This document shows, piece by piece, positions 35,265-55,200 of a stretch of 64,000 bases of DNA (the stretch's first letter is position 1; the number at the start of each line of letters is the position of its first letter). The translations under genes were made by a program, and so were the position numbers. The stretch comes from Nitrosopumilaceae archaeon (GTDB lineage: Archaea; Thermoproteota; Nitrososphaeria; Nitrososphaerales; Nitrosopumilaceae). The notes beneath the pieces were generated by a model. That model was not told the origin of the DNA. It saw only the letters and a list, made by a program, of their open reading frames with translations, and did not search any database. The stretch covers positions 512,001-576,000 of the forward strand of contig CBDBCR010000003.1 in the NCBI GenBank assembly GCA_965203465.1. Reading direction: 5' to 3'.

Positions 35265-35417
35265 GTTCCCCGAGCCGGCGGCAGAGCCGCGGGGCAGGCG
35301 CGAAGTGGCGGCCTCCGGATCAAGAACCGGCACGGCCGGAAAACGCAGAGTCGTGTACAGCGTCCGCTAGGGCCCGTAAAAAATGGACCGTCGCGCATAG
35401 TCTCTATGTGTGTGGCT

Positions 35418-38419
<3,002 letters not shown>

Positions 38420-38565
38420 TACAGCCACATATTACACGACTATGCGCGACGATCATCGCAAGGGGCCCTGCCGGGCCTCCCCGCTACATCCTTCATCCGC
38501 CACTTTCGTGGCGCATTGCACCGATGGTTCGCGGAAAGACATGCGCGCACCCGCTTGTGTTCCTA

Positions 38566-40036
<1,471 letters not shown>

Positions 40037-40272: not shown

Positions 40273-41559
40273 GTGGACGCCGAGGCCCTCTACAGGAGAA
40301 AGACGCCCCTGTCCGCCCGGCTCTTCGCCAGATCGGAGCGCCTGCACCCGGGCGGGGTCAGCCACAACATACGGTACTTCGAGCCGTACCCCTTCGTCTC
40401 CGTGTCCGCCTCGGGGAGCCGCATCGAAGACGCTGACGGCAACCGGTACACCGACTACTGGATGGGCCACTGGAGCCTCGTCCTGGGCCACTCGCCCCCC
40501 CGGGTGCGCTCGGCCCTGGCCGCCCAGCTCGGAAAGGGCTGGATGCACGGTACGTCCAACGAGCCGACCCTGAGGCTCTCGGAGCTGATACGGAGGGCGG
40601 TGCCGGCCGCCGAAAAGATACGGTACACGGCCTCGGGGACCGAGGCGGTCGCGTACTCTGTGCGGCTGGCGCGCGCGGCGACCGGGAAAAAGACGGCTGC
40701 CAAGATAGAGGGCGGGTGGCACGGGTACGGGCCCGGCCTGGTAAGGTCGGTCAACGCGCCGTTCGATGTACCGGAGGGCGCCGGCATGTCCGGCGAGGAA
40801 AATACCGTCTCGCTTCCGTACAACGACCTGGAGGGCTCCTTGGACGCGCTGCGCAAGACAAAGAGCCTCGCGTGCGTCGTGGCAGAGCCGCTGCTCGGCG
40901 GGGGCGGCGGGATACCGGCCGAGCCCGACTACCTGAAGGGCCTGCAGGAGTTTGCGCAAAAGCGCGGGGCTCTTTTGATACTCGACGAGATAGTCACCGG
41001 GTTCCGGCTGAGGTACGGGTGCGCGTACCAGCCCATGGGGCTGTCGCCCGACATCGTCGCGCTAGGCAAGATAGTCGGGGGCGGCATGCCGGTCGGCGCC
41101 ATCTGCGGGATCGACGAGGTGATGAAGCTTGCCGACGCGCGCTCGTGCCCCAGGAAAAAGAGGGCGTACGTCGGCGGCGGCACCTTCTCGGCCAACCCGG
41201 CGTCGATGGTCTGCGGGTACGAGACGCTCTCGGAGCTGAAGGGCAGGCACGCCGCTTTGAACAGGCTCGGCGTCGCGGCGAGGAAGAGACTGGCCTCGGC
41301 GTTCTCGGGCGAGGCGGCGGTGACCGGCGCGGGCTCGCTGTTCGCGGTCCATTTCGGCGAGGGGCCGGTAAAGAGCGCGGCCGACGCGGCGGCCTGCGAT
41401 CAAAACCTGCAGAAAAGATACCACTTTGAGATGATAGCAAAAGACGGCATATTCTGCCTGCCCGGCAAGATGGGATCCTTTTCGGCGGCCCACTCGGAGG
41501 CGGACGCAAAGCGGCTGGCTTCGGCGTCCGAGCGCTTTGCGCAGTCTTTCAGGAAATGA
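40273..41559 (+). CDS. hemL: Glutamate-1-semialdehyde 2,1-aminomutase-like class III aminotransferase
   Basis: [45 protein letters not shown] and GGTFSANP motifs. Confidence 0.85.
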
Positions 41560-42004
41560 GGCCCGTGGCGAGGGATTCAAAGTCGGATTCGTACCACCAC
41601 GTCCTGTAGGGGGCCCCGGGCCTGCCCGAGACGTTCAGGGCGATGTGCGAAAAGTCCCCCTTGCCGGACGAGCCGTGCGCGTGGAGCGTGCCGGCCGGTA
41701 TGTGGACGATGTCGCCCTTTGAGAGTTTTTGGGCGCCGGTCTTCCGCATGGAAAACCCCCGGCCCCTCCTGGCCAGGCGCTCGTAGGTCTCCAGGCTGCC
41801 CCTGCCGCCGGTTCCTATGAGTATCTGGCTCCCGCCGTGGCGGTGCAGTTTCGTGCGCGAGCCACGGAACGTGACGTGGTATATGCCGTGGTCCGCGTAG
41901 CCCGCGGGCCCTCCCACGTCGCGCAGCACCGTCGGGCCGGTAAACCACTCTTTTTTCACGTCGCGGCGCACCCTGCCGCCCGTGATGCTGGACTTCACGG
42001 TCAC
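41549..42004 (-). CDS. Cupin-domain protein
   Basis: [12 protein letters not shown] and [15 protein letters not shown] cupin motifs. Confidence 0.85.
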
Positions 42005-42139
42005 GTTGCCGAAAATGCAGGTCTTATACCTTGGCAGGCGCGCTGGACGGCAGCTTTCAAGACGGACGTTTTGGCCTGATGCCGTGAAACCACTCGACCC
42101 GAATCGGGCCTGCGCGAGTAGGCGGCAAACGGTCACGAG

Positions 42140-45441
<3,302 letters not shown>

Positions 45442-45445
<4 letters not shown>

Positions 45446-48400
45446 GTCGCCCTACCTGATATCTCGTCATAGTACGCCGGGGCCATCTTTCTCACTTCGC
45501 CGTAAAATCCGCGCAAGACCTTCCGGTTTTTCCAATCTGCCGCATCTGCTGCCAATAAGGATCGATCTTCGTCAAACTTGAAAGAATCCAATATACGACG
45601 ATAATCTTGCTTTGATAGTCCATATTCTTTAGCGACGAGTGCATCAAGTTTTGCACACACTTGTATTCTATCTGGTGGAGCGAGTACGGCATTCTTAATC
45701 CGGAGTGATTCTGCAAATGCATCAAACTCAGGTGAACCTACAGACAATCTTGCTGCAAGATTTGCAATTTCAGTATTGTGTGTTTTCGGAATAGGGGTAT
45801 TCTTGATAATGGTGGGAACGTCTAGCCGTATTTTTGAGCGCATAATAAAATCAAACGTCATAGAATTTAATACACCTGACAAATATGCGATGTTTTGGTT
45901 ATATTTATCAGTTAGTTCTACTTTGCCGTTATGTGTAATTATAATCGACTGCAGAGTATCTGTATGAAATGTGCGGGGCGGTATTATAGCCGCAATAGTA
46001 GTTCGTGTCACAGTAGACGTAGAAACACGATGAAATGTCAATTGATATGCATTGAAAAAATCCCTATAGTGTTTTTTGTACACTCGTTTGGACGACAGTC
46101 TTGCCAGTCCGTCTGATTCAGATACGGTAAACTTGTGTGTAGCAAAGTTACTGTCAAACTGCGATGTGTGTTTACCTTCCAAGACTGGGCGGCCATTACC
46201 ATCAGTCTTTAACAGATCAGCATCTTTCACTCTATGTAATCCACTAGCCAACCCAACATCCCAACCGTCGACGCCTAAACCAAGAGCGTTGTGCTTTGAG
46301 AGTTTTTCTAACAAAAGAGCAGTCTCGTGATTTACCTCTGTAATTATAAGATCGGTTGGAGATGTGTTTCGTATGCGCTGTTTTGAGCGCATAGTAAATT
46401 TTTCTTTTTCAGTTGCTTTGTTTTCCAGTGTCGCTAATTGGTGAAGGTAGAAGCCAGAAGGGATTTGGTCAGAGCCTTTTGTGTTTCTTATAGTTAAAAG
46501 TACAAATCGGAATTCGCGATGTATGGGGAAGATTTTGTGTTTGTTTTCATATACATAGATTTGGCGAATATCCAGTTCTAGACATTTTTTACGTAAATTT
46601 ACTGTACCAACACTTGTTAGAATTTGAGATGGAATCAATATAGAAATTAAACCGTTTTCAGATACTAAATTCAACATACGCTCAAGCATAATTTTCCATA
46701 TATCTCGATCTCCCACACTCTGTAGTTTGTAGGTTTTATAAAATGTGTTTCTATCATTAAAGGATTTTATGTATGTTTGGTATTCTTCCTTTATTTCTTT
46801 ACGTTCTGCGTAAATTTCCACAACACGTTTTTCTTTTTCTTTATGGGTGCTGAGACTAGCAAACACGGGATCATGTTGAATGAAAAACTCATCCATATAT
46901 GGTTTGACTTTATCCCATGGAGGATTTCCGATTACTAGATCAAATCCTTTCTTTTTATCAGTAAAAGCATCCATCATTTCTAGATCCCAATGGAAGAATG
47001 AATATTTATTTCTAAGTTCGTTGATCGTGTTTCGGATCCGATTTGTTGGCACATCGGGTTTTGTAGAACCTTCTGAAATTTTTCCCAAAGCTCTTGCGAA
47101 CAATTTGGGCGTCCGTTTAGGGAGCAAGCTTTTATCGATTACAAATGCAGTTAGTGCATCAAGCTCAGTTCTATGCGGAGTCATTCTTTTTTCATATTCT
47201 GCATATGCATCTTCACTAGAACGCACAGCATCGACCGTAACATCCGCATTGCGACTAATGTCTCCTAGAATAGATCCTGCTTTCTCAGTTTTCATATATA
47301 CATCCAGATCTGTGTCATGTTTTGACCCCATGTCGGATCGCCACATGCCAATCGTGGAGTCGCCATGCTTGATGTGATGGTTAAGATAAGTCAACGGAAC
47401 CCCTATGGCAAACGAGTCCAACCACAACGACAGTTTGCACAAATCTACGGCTAGAGGATTCAAATCAACGCCAAATATACAACGCTTCATAACGCGTCGT
47501 TTTAGCAACACATCGTCTGACAACAGAGACGGATTTATTGTAACTCCTCGGTTCTGTTGCTCTTGAACCACCAACCTGCGATCGTCGTCGATCTCAGCCA
47601 AGAGTGGATGTCCAGCATGTTTCTTCAACATCCGAGTAGCCCACTCAGTTATTCTGCTGAGCGCCTCAACTAAGAAATGTCCACTCCCCATAGCCGGATC
47701 CAGTACTTGTACATCAAGTAGCCTATCTGTGCAAACGCACCGGTTAGTTTCGCTAGGATTCTTGTGGTATGCTTCTAGATCTTCTGCGATGAGAACTTCA
47801 CGCTCGGCGAGTATGGGCTCTAGGCCCTGTCGCACCAAAAACCTAACCATTTCATCTGGCGTGTAGTAGCTAGCGGTAGATTTGCGTAGTGCTATGCCTC
47901 CTTTGGAAGCCAAGTATAGATCGTTCTTTTTGTATGAGTATGCGCCTGATTGCTTAGTCTTTATCTCACGGACTTTTCCATTATCTTCTAACAACATAAT
48001 GTCTTTCTTAGCCTGTCGAACTCCATACTCCATAAGCGTCTCGTAGACGCTACCCAAATGCCGCACGTTTAAACTGGCATAATCGATAGCAGATCCATCC
48101 CTCTCCAATAATCCACGCAACGCTCGCACTATGTGTTCGTTCCTGACACAGCGGTTGTCGATCTGCGGCATGTTCCTAAATAGGTCGCCACCATACTGCG
48201 GCAGATTATGTTCCTTGCTACCACACCTGATCCCACGGAAAAGATTTAGAAGTTTATTCCAGCAATCCATATCATCCGGCCTAGACTCGGAATCGTCTAG
48301 ACTGTTTCGGATTGCCTGTAGAGATATTGGTCGGTACTTTTCATCTTTGGCAGGTAACAAATTCCTAGACTCGGCGTACAAAATAAACCAGATACGGTAC

Positions 48401-49443
48401 ATTATGGCGAGTGCTGCTCTTCGACCTGCCTCCAACTCTGCGGCCGAAAACGTCTTTTTCATGTCGTGATCCAATATGCCCTTTACGATATCCAGGAAAG
48501 TGCCGTTAGCACTCATTATTCGCGAAGCCATATTGTCTTCTAAATCTCTCGCGTATTCCCTACTGTTTGCGAAGAATGCTTCAATGTCGCGCCTTCCTTC
48601 TACCACTGCGTACGCGCTTGATCCAAATATTGCTGCAAGGTACTTTGCAGCAGATTTCCTGTTCGGATCCAAGAAAGCGGCAAAATAGTTGGTGGTAGAT
48701 GCAGACATCTTGGTGGAGTACAGGCGCCAGTCCGTGCCGTTGGTCAGTATCGACCACGTGCTATGTTTTAGCGCATCGACTGCCAAGTAGCTCGGTGCCA
48801 CCTCGGTGTCGCTCTTGCGCACGTTGAGATCGTCACGCGGAGTAACCGTTATGGATACCGTGTCGTCTATCTTTTGCGTACCGTGTTCGGGTTTTATATT
48901 CCAGCCCAGTTTCTTTAGTGCATCCCACACATTCCCAGCTGCCAAGACGCTTTCAGCGACCTTGTTTGCGTCCATCCTAGTATCATTCCATATGCGCTCT
49001 TTCAGGTAGTGGTTCTCGAAGAGACCTCGATTGTCAAAGTCCTTGGTAGCCGTCTGGAGTGCATGGATTGCTTCCTTCATGGCCACCAGCGCCCTAATCT
49101 TGGTAGTAGCGGTAGCAAAACCACAGGATGACAGAACAGCGGCGACGCGCTCGCGCTCGATGCTAGATCCGACTCTTGCGGTATCCGACAGTTTGGCTGC
49201 TTTTAACACGATTGTGTTATGAGGTGACACCAAGATGATGCACTCGGGAATGCCACGCACCGCTTTCTTGACTTCAGATATATTCTTTGGACCCTTTTCG
49301 ATCAGTATTACGGGAATGGGTGGTTTCTTGGAGCCGGCCCGCCTAAAGCCGTACGAGACCCACGTTTCGTGCAGATCGGTTTCGTGCCGATCGTCCGGGT
49401 TTACCCCCACGGCGGCCAGCAGTCCGGCCTCCGAGTGGGTCAA
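45442..49443 (-). CDS. Eco57I/type IIG-like N6-adenine DNA methyltransferase with TRD
   Basis: ILTNGTDWRLY, RKSTASYYTP, VLDPAMGSGHFL, IFGVDLNP, FFHWDLE and GFDLVIGNPPW motifs; TTG start. Confidence 0.92.
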
Positions 49444-49597
49444 AGCCCAAGGGCCGGCTGGCCAAGATCAGTACCTGAGTAATAGGTAGAACGAGGTAGA
49501 ACGAGGTAGAACGAGGTAGAACGAGGTAGAACGAGGTTTCACTCGTCAGTAGGGAGCCTTGTTCAGAGGTGATTTTGTGGTTTGGGTGTAGGGCCAT
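49343..49597 (-). other. Leader ORF (84 aa as assembled) running through the 10-bp tandem repeat and overlapping the methylase start out of frame
   Basis: ATG 49597 lies 26-33 nt below TATAAAAA (49630-49623); translation shows the repeat as TSFYLVLPRSTSFYLVLP. Confidence 0.55.
49484..49537. repeat. 10-bp tandem repeat (ACGAGGTAGA) x5.4
   Basis: AGGTAGA (ACGAGGTAGA)4 ACGAGGT, perfect copies. Confidence 0.97.
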
Positions 49598-49622
49598 TGT
49601 TACTTGGGCCTGAATTCGGTCT

Positions 49623-49630
49623 TTTTTATA
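49623..49630 (-). promoter_or_regulatory. TATA box for the leader-methylase-helicase transcript
   Basis: TATAAAAA on the minus strand at canonical distance from ATG 49597. Confidence 0.65.
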
Positions 49631-49743
49631 GATTGATGTGTGCCCTATCGAAATCCGGCCAATGGCGCCAAGCCGTCAACGAGTTCATGTCACGGTACTG
49701 TAGCACTGCCGTGCAAGGATCCGCCCCCCACCCCCGGGCCAAA

Positions 49744-49778
49744 GTTAGCCCAGGCTAACAAATTTAGCCCATGCTAAC
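49744..49778. promoter_or_regulatory. Tandem DtxR/MntR-like palindromic operators abutting the MCO-ZIP TATA box
   Basis: GTTAG CCCAGG CTAAC (49744-59) and TTTAG CCCATG CTAAC (49763-78), followed directly by TTTTAATA (49779-86). Confidence 0.7.
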
Positions 49779-49808: not shown

Positions 49809-50819
49809 GTGAGGTCGAAGGTAGGGCTGGCGGTGCTGGCCCTCTCGTGCGCCCTGGCGCTGTACGTGGCGATACCCGAGGCTATCGACGCGCAGCGCGA
49901 AAAGACGACGTTCGTGACTCACTCGGGCAGGGTGGTTTCCACGTCCGGCGATATACTCGATCCGCTCTACTCTGCGCAGACAGTCGAGTTCGACCCCATG
50001 GAGTACCTGCGCGAGTTCGACTACGGCGAGGTCTCGCAGCTGCCCGACGGGCGCACCCTGCGCGAGTACCGCATAACGGCAGAGGACGACCGGATCATGG
50101 AGATCTCGCCGGGCGTCTATTACAACGTCTGGACGTACAACGGGGCGGTGCCGGGCCCGACCATACGCGCCACCGAGGGCGACGTGGTGCGGGTGCACTT
50201 TGTCAACGAGGGATCGAAAGAGCACACCATCCACTTCCACGGCACGCACCCGGCCGCCATGGACGGCGTCTTCGAGGTCGTCGGCGGCGGAGGGGGCCGC
50301 TTCACCTACGAGTTCGAGGCAGGGCCGGTCGGCGTGCACCCGTACCACTGCCACGTCATGCCCCTCGAGGAGCACATCATACACGGCCTGTACGGCATGT
50401 TCATCGTGGACCCCAAGGAGGGCAGGGCGCCGGCAGACGAGATGGTCATGGTACTGAACGGCTTCGACACCGACTTTGACGCAGAGAACAACCTGTACGC
50501 GGCCAACACCGTCCCGTTCTACTACCAGCACCACCCCATCGAGATAGAAAAGGATCGGCTGATCAGGATATACGTGGCCAACATGGTAGAGTTCGATCCC
50601 ATAAACAACTTCCACCTGCACGGCAACCTGTACCACTATTACCCGACCGGCACCGACACCGTCCCGTCCGAGTTCACCGACATGATAACCCTTTCGCAGA
50701 CCGAGCGCGGCATAATGGAGTTTTCGTACGAGCACCCCGGCAGATACCTCTTCCACGCCCACAAGGTGGAGTTTTCGGAAAAAGGGTGGGTGGGCCTGTT
50801 CCTGGTAAGGGAGACATGA
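49809..50819 (+). CDS. Two-domain multicopper oxidase (AOA MCO type)
   Basis: N-terminal signal/TM segment, WTYNGAVPGPTIRA, HTIHFHG, YHCHVMPLEEHI..GLYG, NFHLHG, YLFHAH; ATGA overlap with the ZIP gene. Confidence 0.9.
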   Translation: MRSKVGLAVLALSCALALYVAIPEAIDAQREKTTFVTHSGRVVSTSGDILDPLYSAQTVEFDPMEYLREFDYGEVSQLPDGRTLREYRITAEDDRIMEISPGVYYNVWTYNGAVPGPTIRATEGDVVRVHFVNEGSKEHTIHFHGTHPAAMDGVFEVVGGGGGRFTYEFEAGPVGVHPYHCHVMPLEEHIIHGLYGMFIVDPKEGRAPADEMVMVLNGFDTDFDAENNLYAANTVPFYYQHHPIEIEKDRLIRIYVANMVEFDPINNFHLHGNLYHYYPTGTDTVPSEFTDMITLSQTERGIMEFSYEHPGRYLFHAHKVEFSEKGWVGLFLVRET

Positions 50820-54842: not shown

Positions 54843-55200
54843 GCGGTTTTAGCGGGCCCGCATTTGCAGTTTGCGATTCTCCGGCCGGGTCGATGTACAG
54901 GGGCAGCGAATGGCGCGCAAGAAGCGAGTCACCGGACGGCTCGGATCTGCCAGGGCGCTGTAAAGAACGCCCGGGCCGGCGCGCGGCCGTTCGGCCGGAG
55001 CCCGCGGGAATACGCCCCCGGCGGGCCCTAGCCTGCCGCTGGGGCCCGCGCCCGCGGCTTTGTTCGGCAATTCGTATTTTCGTGCCTGCGCAGTAGCCGG
55101 ATCGGCCAAAAAACGGCTCCGTTCAGGCACGGATCGCGGAATTACCGAACAAAGCCGCGCCCGCGCCATGTTATTATACGGGGGGCCCCGCAGAAAGGCC

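Follow-up and report, generated by a model that had tools for sequence, protein, structure and literature searches.

Does a short tandem repeat in the leader of a large DNA methylase gene decide whether two archaeal defence genes are translated? This question is raised by a locus in the window, i.e. the whole 64,000-nucleotide stretch of DNA that was analysed here (positions 512,001 to 576,000 of contig CBDBCR010000003.1, assembly GCA_965203465.1), which originates from an archaeon of the family Nitrosopumilaceae. On the minus strand of the window, a perfect 10-nt repeat lies inside an upstream open reading frame (uORF) that precedes the gene for an Eco57I-like N6-adenine DNA methylase, which is followed by a gene for a nuclease-helicase fusion. 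The arrangement of reading frames indicates that the focal locus is probably a slipped-strand phase-variation switch of this two-gene defence operon, which would operate by termination-reinitiation coupling between the uORF and the methylase gene.

At the head of the focal leader stands TATAAAAAAG (49630-49621, minus strand). It includes TATAAAAA (49623-49630), a candidate archaeal TATA box according to its sequence and the domain of the host, the first T of which lies 33 nt ahead of the uORF ATG (49597-49595, minus strand). As assembled, the uORF (49343-49597, minus strand; taken from the list of open reading frames (ORFs) and a script) encodes 84 amino acids (aa) without a Pfam family; it runs through the repeat and, in a different frame from the methylase, extends 100 nt past the methylase start. 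The repeat (49484-49537, minus strand) consists of 5.4 copies of a 10-nt unit, ACCTCGTTCT in gene orientation, for which Tandem Repeats Finder gave 100% matches, no indels, and a score of 108. The unit is free of stop codons in every sense frame and contains a stop in antisense orientation.

The frame states of the leader were computed by a script that adds or removes whole repeat units. One additional unit leads to a 55-aa leader ending in ..STYYSGTDLGQPALGL (..GQPALGL), the TGA of which (49442-49440) overlaps the methylase start codon TTG (49443-49441) in a TTGA motif (49440-49443, minus strand). After loss of one unit, the leader is 39 aa long and terminates 24 nt ahead of the TTG, at a TGA (49470-49468, minus strand) that belongs to the methylase frame. 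Two units more or fewer cycle through the same outcomes, +2 ending at the upstream TGA and -2 at the TTGA. The locus has the layout of a simple sequence repeat (SSR) contingency locus, i.e. a perfect repeat with a period that is not a multiple of three (non-3n), placed where a change in length alters the frame of the leader. A stop that overlaps the start codon, as in translational coupling, arises in one of three frames (+1 or -2 units), which is not the assembled one. Fusion of the uORF to the methylase in some state was also considered and rejected, since an in-frame stop intervenes in every case.

The methylase (1333 aa; 45442-49443, minus strand) starts with TTG, and the TGA at 49470 closes its frame nine codons above, so that no canonical start other than this TTG is available ahead of the conserved N-terminus. 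Nine loci were translated, comprising the focal one and homologues and including locus L018, the upstream region of which is unreadable. TTG occupies the same aligned codon in eight of them (the focal locus, six repeat-bearing homologues, and L018), and it is the start at one aligned codon in all seven repeat-bearing methylases. Counted from the TTG, alignments with homologues set in at residues 4-8 of the protein, and conservation is seen at residues 5-13, L8 and G13 being invariant. A start further upstream or downstream is excluded by the TGA at 49470 and by the conserved residues 5-13. Inspection of the sequence ahead of the TTG revealed no GGAGG-like motif.

The methylase belongs to Pfam family PF07669 (72.8 bits, cut-off 25.3), and its translation contains DPAMGSGHF and GNPPW, which we take to be the S-adenosylmethionine-binding and NPPW motifs. 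PADLOC profiles matched REase_MTase_IIG (1.2e-84) and DrmMI (4.6e-71). With regard to a Type IIG assignment, the IIG profile covers residues 572-1290 only, Pfam detected no nuclease family in the protein, and a separate nuclease-helicase is encoded next door; a phmmer search against PDB sequences gave no matches. The neighbouring gene (42140-45445, minus strand) encodes a PLD (HKD) nuclease fused to a SNF2 helicase (1101 aa; Pfam, and PADLOC 'HKD+Snf2' at 8.3e-49), and the methylase stop and its ATG share an ATGA (45445-45442). Among 19 loci tested, which include that of the window, the methylase is followed by a homologue of this partner in 18, which indicates a conserved two-gene module. Through their profile matches, the methylase (DrmMI) and its partner ('HKD+Snf2', DrmD) resemble DISARM class 1, which comprises DrmMI, the SNF2 helicase DrmD, the PLD nuclease DrmC, DrmA, and DrmB, as well as the PADLOC candidate system 'HKD+Snf2'. 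In contrast to DISARM class 1, the focal operon has two genes only. The helicase reached 143.5 bits against NCBIfam DrmD (cut-off 610), and neither DrmA nor DrmB was recognised among the adjacent ORFs, those at 41549-42136, 40994-41509, and 41062-41580 being without a Pfam family. Because of the DrmD score far under the cut-off and the lack of a recognisable DrmA or DrmB nearby, the operon is by definition not a DISARM class 1 system.

Among the features described so far, those claimed in the original prediction are a repeat of about 5.4 units, a leader that overruns the TTG out of frame, the two outcomes of gaining or losing a unit, the ATGA overlap of methylase and helicase, and TTG 49443 as the real start. 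They were recovered by Tandem Repeats Finder, by reading of the sequence, by the script, and by the alignment of homologues, respectively for each kind of claim.

How ribosomes would enter the leader depends on the host. Archaeal 16S and 23S rRNA genes in the window, together with two genes for TATA-binding protein and an amoA of the archaeal type in the genome (2.26 Mb; G+C 65%), identify it as an ammonia-oxidising archaeon; its 16S rRNA ends in CCUCC, the anti-Shine-Dalgarno sequence. Since the host is an archaeon, TATAAAAA reads as an archaeal TATA box and not as a bacterial -10 element followed by a leader. The centre of TATAAAAA is located 29 nt from the uORF ATG. Throughout the genome, the ATGs of long ORFs show a peak 25-29 nt past the centre of A/T-rich octamers, with 108 cases at 26 nt versus about 50-75 at other in-phase distances. 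Judging by this spacing, the uORF is probably leaderless, with transcription starting at or just before ATG 49597.

For the focal locus, we infer a transcription start, translation of the uORF, reinitiation, and switching in the following sequence. The TATA box would drive an mRNA that begins at or a few nt from ATG 49597, and ribosomes would load on the short leader ORF. Gain or loss of one 10-nt unit would shift them into another frame past the repeat. In the ON state (+1/-2), ribosomes would terminate at the TTGA and reinitiate on a poor start, which is a TTG without a Shine-Dalgarno (SD) sequence that lies in a predicted hairpin loop. With -1 or +2 units, the stop lies 24 nt upstream and expression would be off or nearly so, and in the assembled state the 100-nt read-over across the start would keep it off. 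The helicase, being ATGA-coupled to the methylase, would follow it. In Haloferax volcanii and Escherichia coli, overlapping or abutting stop-start pairs are known to support termination-reinitiation coupling (PMC6728339), and gaps of about 20 nt nearly abolish reinitiation in both organisms (PMC10666635). Three expression levels, OFF, ON, and intermediate, had been assigned to the frame states in the original prediction. The three-state layout holds, and it recurs in 20 further leaders of two unrelated defence-gene families, whereas the supposed intermediate state with its 24-nt gap is more likely near OFF, because reinitiation is almost lost once stop and start are about 20 nt apart. For the focal locus as assembled, the predicted state is OFF. 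On the whole, the interpretation given in the original prediction appears supported, and this through comparative evidence only.

This comparative evidence begins within the same genome. A genome-wide search for near-perfect tandem repeats (period at least 4, at least 3 copies, at least 95% matches) yielded 17, among them three 10-mers, each of them part of a leader that precedes a large restriction-modification gene. The second of these leaders is located on the plus strand of the window. It comprises a TATA-like AAATATA (57299-57305), a uORF with ATG 57327 (57327-57386), and a perfect repeat of 3.1 copies of the 10-mer AGCTCTGTAC (57339-57369; Tandem Repeats Finder). As assembled, the uORF passes through the repeat and ends at a TAG (57384) 36 nt before the main ATG. 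According to sequence and frames, it would stop at +1 or -2 units at a TGA (57419-57421) that abuts the main start as TGAATG, and the three frames end at TGA 57370, TAG 57384, or TGA 57419. The downstream gene (57422-62149, plus strand) encodes a Type ISP restriction-modification enzyme of 1575 aa, in which all five Pfam families, Type_ISP_C (7e-78), Mrr_cat_2, ResIII, ISP_coupler, and N6_Mtase, are found in one chain. The third 10-mer (5.0 copies; G000:C2:140543-140592, minus strand) is related in sequence to the repeat at 57339; it is found on another contig ahead of a second Type ISP paralogue, in a leader with the same three-frame layout. Both Type ISP leaders have an A/T-rich element 26-27 nt (centre to ATG) before the ATG of the repeat-spanning ORF, and in both one post-repeat frame leads to TGAATG, the other two stopping 38-58 nt upstream.

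The same design is encountered in relatives. The methylase and the Type ISP enzyme were each searched against 401 genomes of the family. The methylase query had a match in 28 genomes, and seven of the 20 loci with a captured N-terminus carry a perfect repeat at most 100 nt upstream. These repeats (period x copies) are 10x5.4, 10x18.8, 10x3.1, 10x3.9, 11x4.7, 13x4.5, and 13x41, and their units are unrelated. A TAA or TGA abuts the TTG in five of the seven repeat-bearing methylases (CTAATTG or TGATTG) and overlaps it in the window locus. For the Type ISP query, 38 of the 401 genomes had a match, and leader repeats were present at nine of 20 loci, with periods of 10, 10, 7, 7, 7, 10, 13, 10, and 11. 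Four more leaders of Type ISP paralogues (periods 8, 7, 13, and 19) and that of the second paralogue in the host genome bring the set to 14. Of these, 11 have a stop directly abutting the main start, one (L041) has an overlapping stop, and one (L077) has a stop 1 nt before the start. Searches of metagenome contigs with a single protein as query gave 39 pattern matches and confirmed no relative among them; an N-terminal alignment as query gave one locus with 30% identity.

Across these leaders, several regularities relate to the reading frame. All 21 repeat periods (7, 8, 10, 11, 13, or 19) are non-multiples of three. Units are free of stops in every sense frame in 17 of 17 tested and in antisense orientation in seven of 17. 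No stop interrupts the coupling frame between the repeat and the junction stop in any of the 15 spacers tested; for four long spacers, the probability of an open coupling frame in shuffled sequence is 0.065-0.12 each. Of the 21 leaders, 19 have a post-repeat frame whose stop codon either abuts or overlaps the main start or precedes it by 1 nt. The repeat is likewise spanned by an ATG-initiated ORF in 19 of 21, the exceptions being L077, where none was found, and L051, which was left out; a scan of all three frames at 14 loci showed this ORF in a single frame each time. In 40 loci, 16 perfect repeats were counted in 6,000 nt of 150-nt leader intervals and three in the other 264,567 nt, a density about 235-fold higher. 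Leader repeats of the focal type are more than chance. Comparison of the loci suggests that the unit sequences turned over many times and that the architecture stayed.

Copy number varies between paralogous and orthologous leaders whose flanks are 81-100% identical. Two Type ISP paralogues of genome G384 share the same 7-mer at 22.4 versus 10.4 copies, with flanks that are 100% and 93% identical, and the orthologues L045 and L047 have 17.9 versus 8.9 copies. At the repeat at 57339, exactly one 10-nt unit is missing in one contig of sequencing run X3 (depth 3.2; another study; 14 mismatches over 612 nt). Genome G368 contains one 13-mer at 4.5, 8.1, and 11.0 copies (L026, L050, and L072), heading one methylase and two Type ISP genes. 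The upstream flanks of its methylase and Type ISP leaders are 94% identical and the downstream flanks are unrelated (55%), from which it appears that promoter, uORF head, and repeat behave as a cassette placed on unrelated genes. By a slight preponderance, we favour the view that ammonia-oxidising archaea carry a modular cassette of TATA box, leaderless mini-ORF, non-3n repeat, and stop-start junction, which would gate unrelated defence genes via termination-reinitiation.

The repeat could also act through RNA, as a hypermutable dial in which the length or structure of the leader governs mRNA stability or access to the start codon. A precedent for this is the 5'-UTR (5' untranslated region) of hmw adhesin genes in Haemophilus influenzae, in which a long hairpin is cut by RNase III (PMC12721329), and the focal repeat does lie between a likely promoter and the start codon. 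Moreover, pyrimidines predominate in many units; some include anti-SD-like CCUC or CACCUC, sequences that could pair with G-rich or SD-like stretches downstream. At the focal junction, an RNA hairpin (49413-49464, minus strand) is predicted that presents TTG/TGA in a 6-nt loop, CUUUGA (-29.8 kcal/mol, z -2.15; six of 200 shuffles fold as well). The whole 201-nt leader, however, folds no better than shuffled sequences (z -0.54). Its minimum-energy fold has a short local stem only within the repeat, and its centroid fold leaves the repeat unpaired, so that the leader folds contain no long hairpin of the repeat with a complementary downstream arm as in hmw. No structure is conserved across homologues either, and control through RNA would leave unexplained why none of the periods is a multiple of three, why units are stop-free in every sense frame but often not in antisense, and why the frame is open up to the stop at the main start. 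Such a dial is therefore regarded as unlikely.

A 10-bp period corresponds to about one helical turn, and units differ between enzymes of presumably different specificities; both would suit an array of protein-binding or methylation-sensing sites, e.g. the enzyme's own target, which would serve autoregulation by phased 10-bp sites. Periods of 7, 8, 11, 13, and 19 at the same position do not suit phased sites, no adjacent regulator gene was seen, the flanking ORFs being without a Pfam family, and the frame-related regularities would again be left unexplained. This function is considered very improbable. That the array is an artefact of assembly can be given hardly any weight at all: although short-read contigs cannot span the repeat, the same kind of perfect array occurs in many independent assemblies, several of which consist of 1-2 contigs, and the sequences on either side of the focal repeat recur without a mismatch in runs X1 and X3.

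A number of observations nevertheless weigh against a phase-variable uORF switch, and some of them would be expected if the repeats were mutational by-products and expression of the methylase were constitutive, starting at its own TTG and perhaps driven by a promoter of its own between repeat and gene. A weak TATA-like sequence, CTATTACT, is indeed located there (about 49485-49478) and is a possible separate promoter. Most reference alleles are outside the coupled frame, the predicted ON frame being present as assembled in only four of 19 callable leaders (L017, L002, L041, and L070), where thirds predict about six. The low number fits a costly defence that is mostly kept off, an idea without positive support. 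SD-like motifs precede the main start in some relatives and at the second switch (e.g. GGAGGTG in L017 and GGAGGGGG at 57409-57416) and may allow initiation independent of the uORF. By-products would, on the other hand, hardly account for the strong enrichment of perfect repeats in leaders, for units that vary while position, non-3n period, openness in sense frames, and stop-start junction are kept, or for the same cassette on unrelated genes, and we regard this explanation as improbable.

Other points against the proposed switch concern its individual parts. The leaderless start rests on the TATA-to-ATG spacing and a modest genome-wide peak, and the averaged A/T profile upstream of 451 first-ATG starts is weak, with a faint rise at -35 to -23. 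RNAalifold found no meaningful shared structure in seven aligned junctions (-0.82 kcal/mol). Folds of 15 single junctions gave z values from +0.07 to -3.34, which were -2 or lower in only five, and in view of both results a conserved masking hairpin at the junction was not relied on. In runs X1 and X3, contigs break off at 49513 or set in at 49508, both positions within the focal repeat; since public contigs end inside the array, its copy number is unreadable in them and no length variation was read. The loci are related by descent, so that the figures for the regularities overstate independence. At L045 and L047 the only ATG is more than 180 nt upstream of the repeat, which makes their state calls weak. 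Among the relatives, L004 has neither an abutting nor an overlapping stop, L051 lacks a canonical start, and in L077 no uORF with an ATG passes through the repeat.

Restriction-modification systems switched by SSRs are well known from bacteria and include the 'phasevarions' of Type III mod genes, the Type I genes hsdM/hsdS, and the Type IIG enzyme Cj0031 of Campylobacter. The archaeal leaders share with them a perfect non-3n repeat at the 5' end of a defence gene, a predicted reversible ON/OFF behaviour, and the presence of several loci per genome. In the bacterial switches, the repeat is part of the enzyme's own coding sequence or promoter, whereas here it belongs to a separate upstream ORF. 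As an in-frame stop always separates repeat and enzyme, the enzyme sequence would never change. The units are also longer (7-19 nt versus 1-5 nt), and the host is a non-pathogenic archaeon. SSR phase variation of restriction-modification genes has been described from bacteria (PMC12707154; PMC11868660).

Two further known systems show partial likeness. With the overlapping gene pairs of H. volcanii and E. coli (ATGA, TGATG; Huber et al. 2019, PMC6728339; 2023, PMC10666635), the archaeal leaders have in common the overlap or abutment of stop and start (TTGA; in relatives TAATTG, TGATTG, TGAATG, and TAGATG), a weak downstream start, and a second operon gene that is ATGA-coupled. Those coupled pairs are fixed and serve stoichiometry, whereas here the upstream partner is a repeat-containing mini-ORF with a hypermutable frame, and coupling itself would be switched. 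The heptanucleotide repeat in the 5'-UTR of H. influenzae hmw1/hmw2 (PMC12721329) is likewise a long-unit repeat between promoter and start codon. Control of hmw is graded, in contrast to the archaeal leaders, where the frame regularities point to a three-phase translational switch without a significant global fold.

Searches of the literature on phase variation in combination with archaea, Thaumarchaeota, contingency loci, uORF, or translational coupling brought up no paper that describes a repeat-in-uORF design, nor one that describes SSR phase variation in archaea. The terms 'translational coupling', 'leader peptide', and 'upstream open reading' do not occur in a 2025 review on phase variation (PMC11868660), which names the distribution of phase variation in archaea as an open question for future work. 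One preprint states that contingency loci have been studied in archaea, and priority for archaea as such is therefore uncertain.

Apart from the leaders with a repeat-spanning uORF, further perfect arrays were observed. A 13-mer with 9.7 copies (G000:C3:748694-748819, minus strand) precedes the conserved start region (LYYGD..DPPF) of another DNA methyltransferase by 2 nt; because the assembled array leaves the frame open, it looks like a classical in-gene repeat switch. A 17-mer with 35 copies (595 nt; G000:C3:763364-763958) is located about 100 nt upstream of another Eco57I-like methylase (open frame of 1038 aa), and its layout is unlike the uORF design, since a TATA-like element stands between repeat and gene. 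A 16-mer with 3.4 copies (G000:C3:772949-773003) is located at the 3' end of a small AbrB-like ORF; near the conserved beginning of the next ORF there is no canonical start, so that another frame-dependent hand-over may exist here. Four perfect arrays of related 15-mers (GCCATGGAGCCACGG type; 4 to 33 copies) were found at G000:C1:677922-678418, C3:339177-339476, C3:921576-921635, and C3:978423-978570; their period is a multiple of three. Two methylase paralogues of about 50% identity (G000:C1:358058-362037 and C1:61211-65186) have ATG or GTG starts and no leader repeat. Near residue 1235-1259, the match of each is disrupted by a frameshift or a TGA, and these genes may be broken.

Among the relatives, several homologues are split at the boundary between methylase and C-terminal specificity region, and perfect non-3n repeats are located at this boundary in L030 (1187-1525, a 5-mer x 67.8) and in L054 (1424-1487) and L061 (5473-5548), with 7-mers x 9.1 and x 10.9. 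The boundary may be a second switch point. Locus L018 (G052:C6) has G23 and C36 homopolymers with unread bases directly before its TAG-TTG junction, which probably represent an unresolved or masked repeat.

With regard to the setting of the focal operon, its G+C content of 33-55% is below that of its surroundings, so that it looks like an inserted island. About 2 kb past its 3' end lies the rRNA operon (23S, 16S; window 35417-40036). Between the promoter of the defence operon and a divergent multicopper-oxidase gene (49809-50819), two 19-nt direct repeats are found (49740-49778), each with the palindrome TTAGCC-N2-GGCTAA, a pattern without any other occurrence in the genome; they are a candidate operator. 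At 55044-55155, 109 nt of the window are skipped in contigs of runs X3 and X8, which corresponds to a strain-level deletion or insertion variant. The sequencing runs that contain the stretch are labelled as sponge or marine metagenomes.

Phase variation by slippery repeats is usually taken as a hallmark of host-adapted bacterial pathogens. If the interpretation given here is true, SSR phase variation would extend to archaea, and a multi-locus, phase-variable defence repertoire would exist outside such pathogens, with several loci per genome, all on anti-virus defence genes, in an abundant environmental and symbiotic archaeal lineage. The frame of a uORF, and not that of the gene, would be the mechanism, which is absent from the searchable literature on phase variation. 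By joining repeat slippage with termination-reinitiation, the proposed mechanism would form a compact three-phase translational switch that is new in kind and leaves the enzyme untouched by the repeat. Stochastic switching of restriction would then shape virus-host dynamics and gene flow in ammonia oxidisers.

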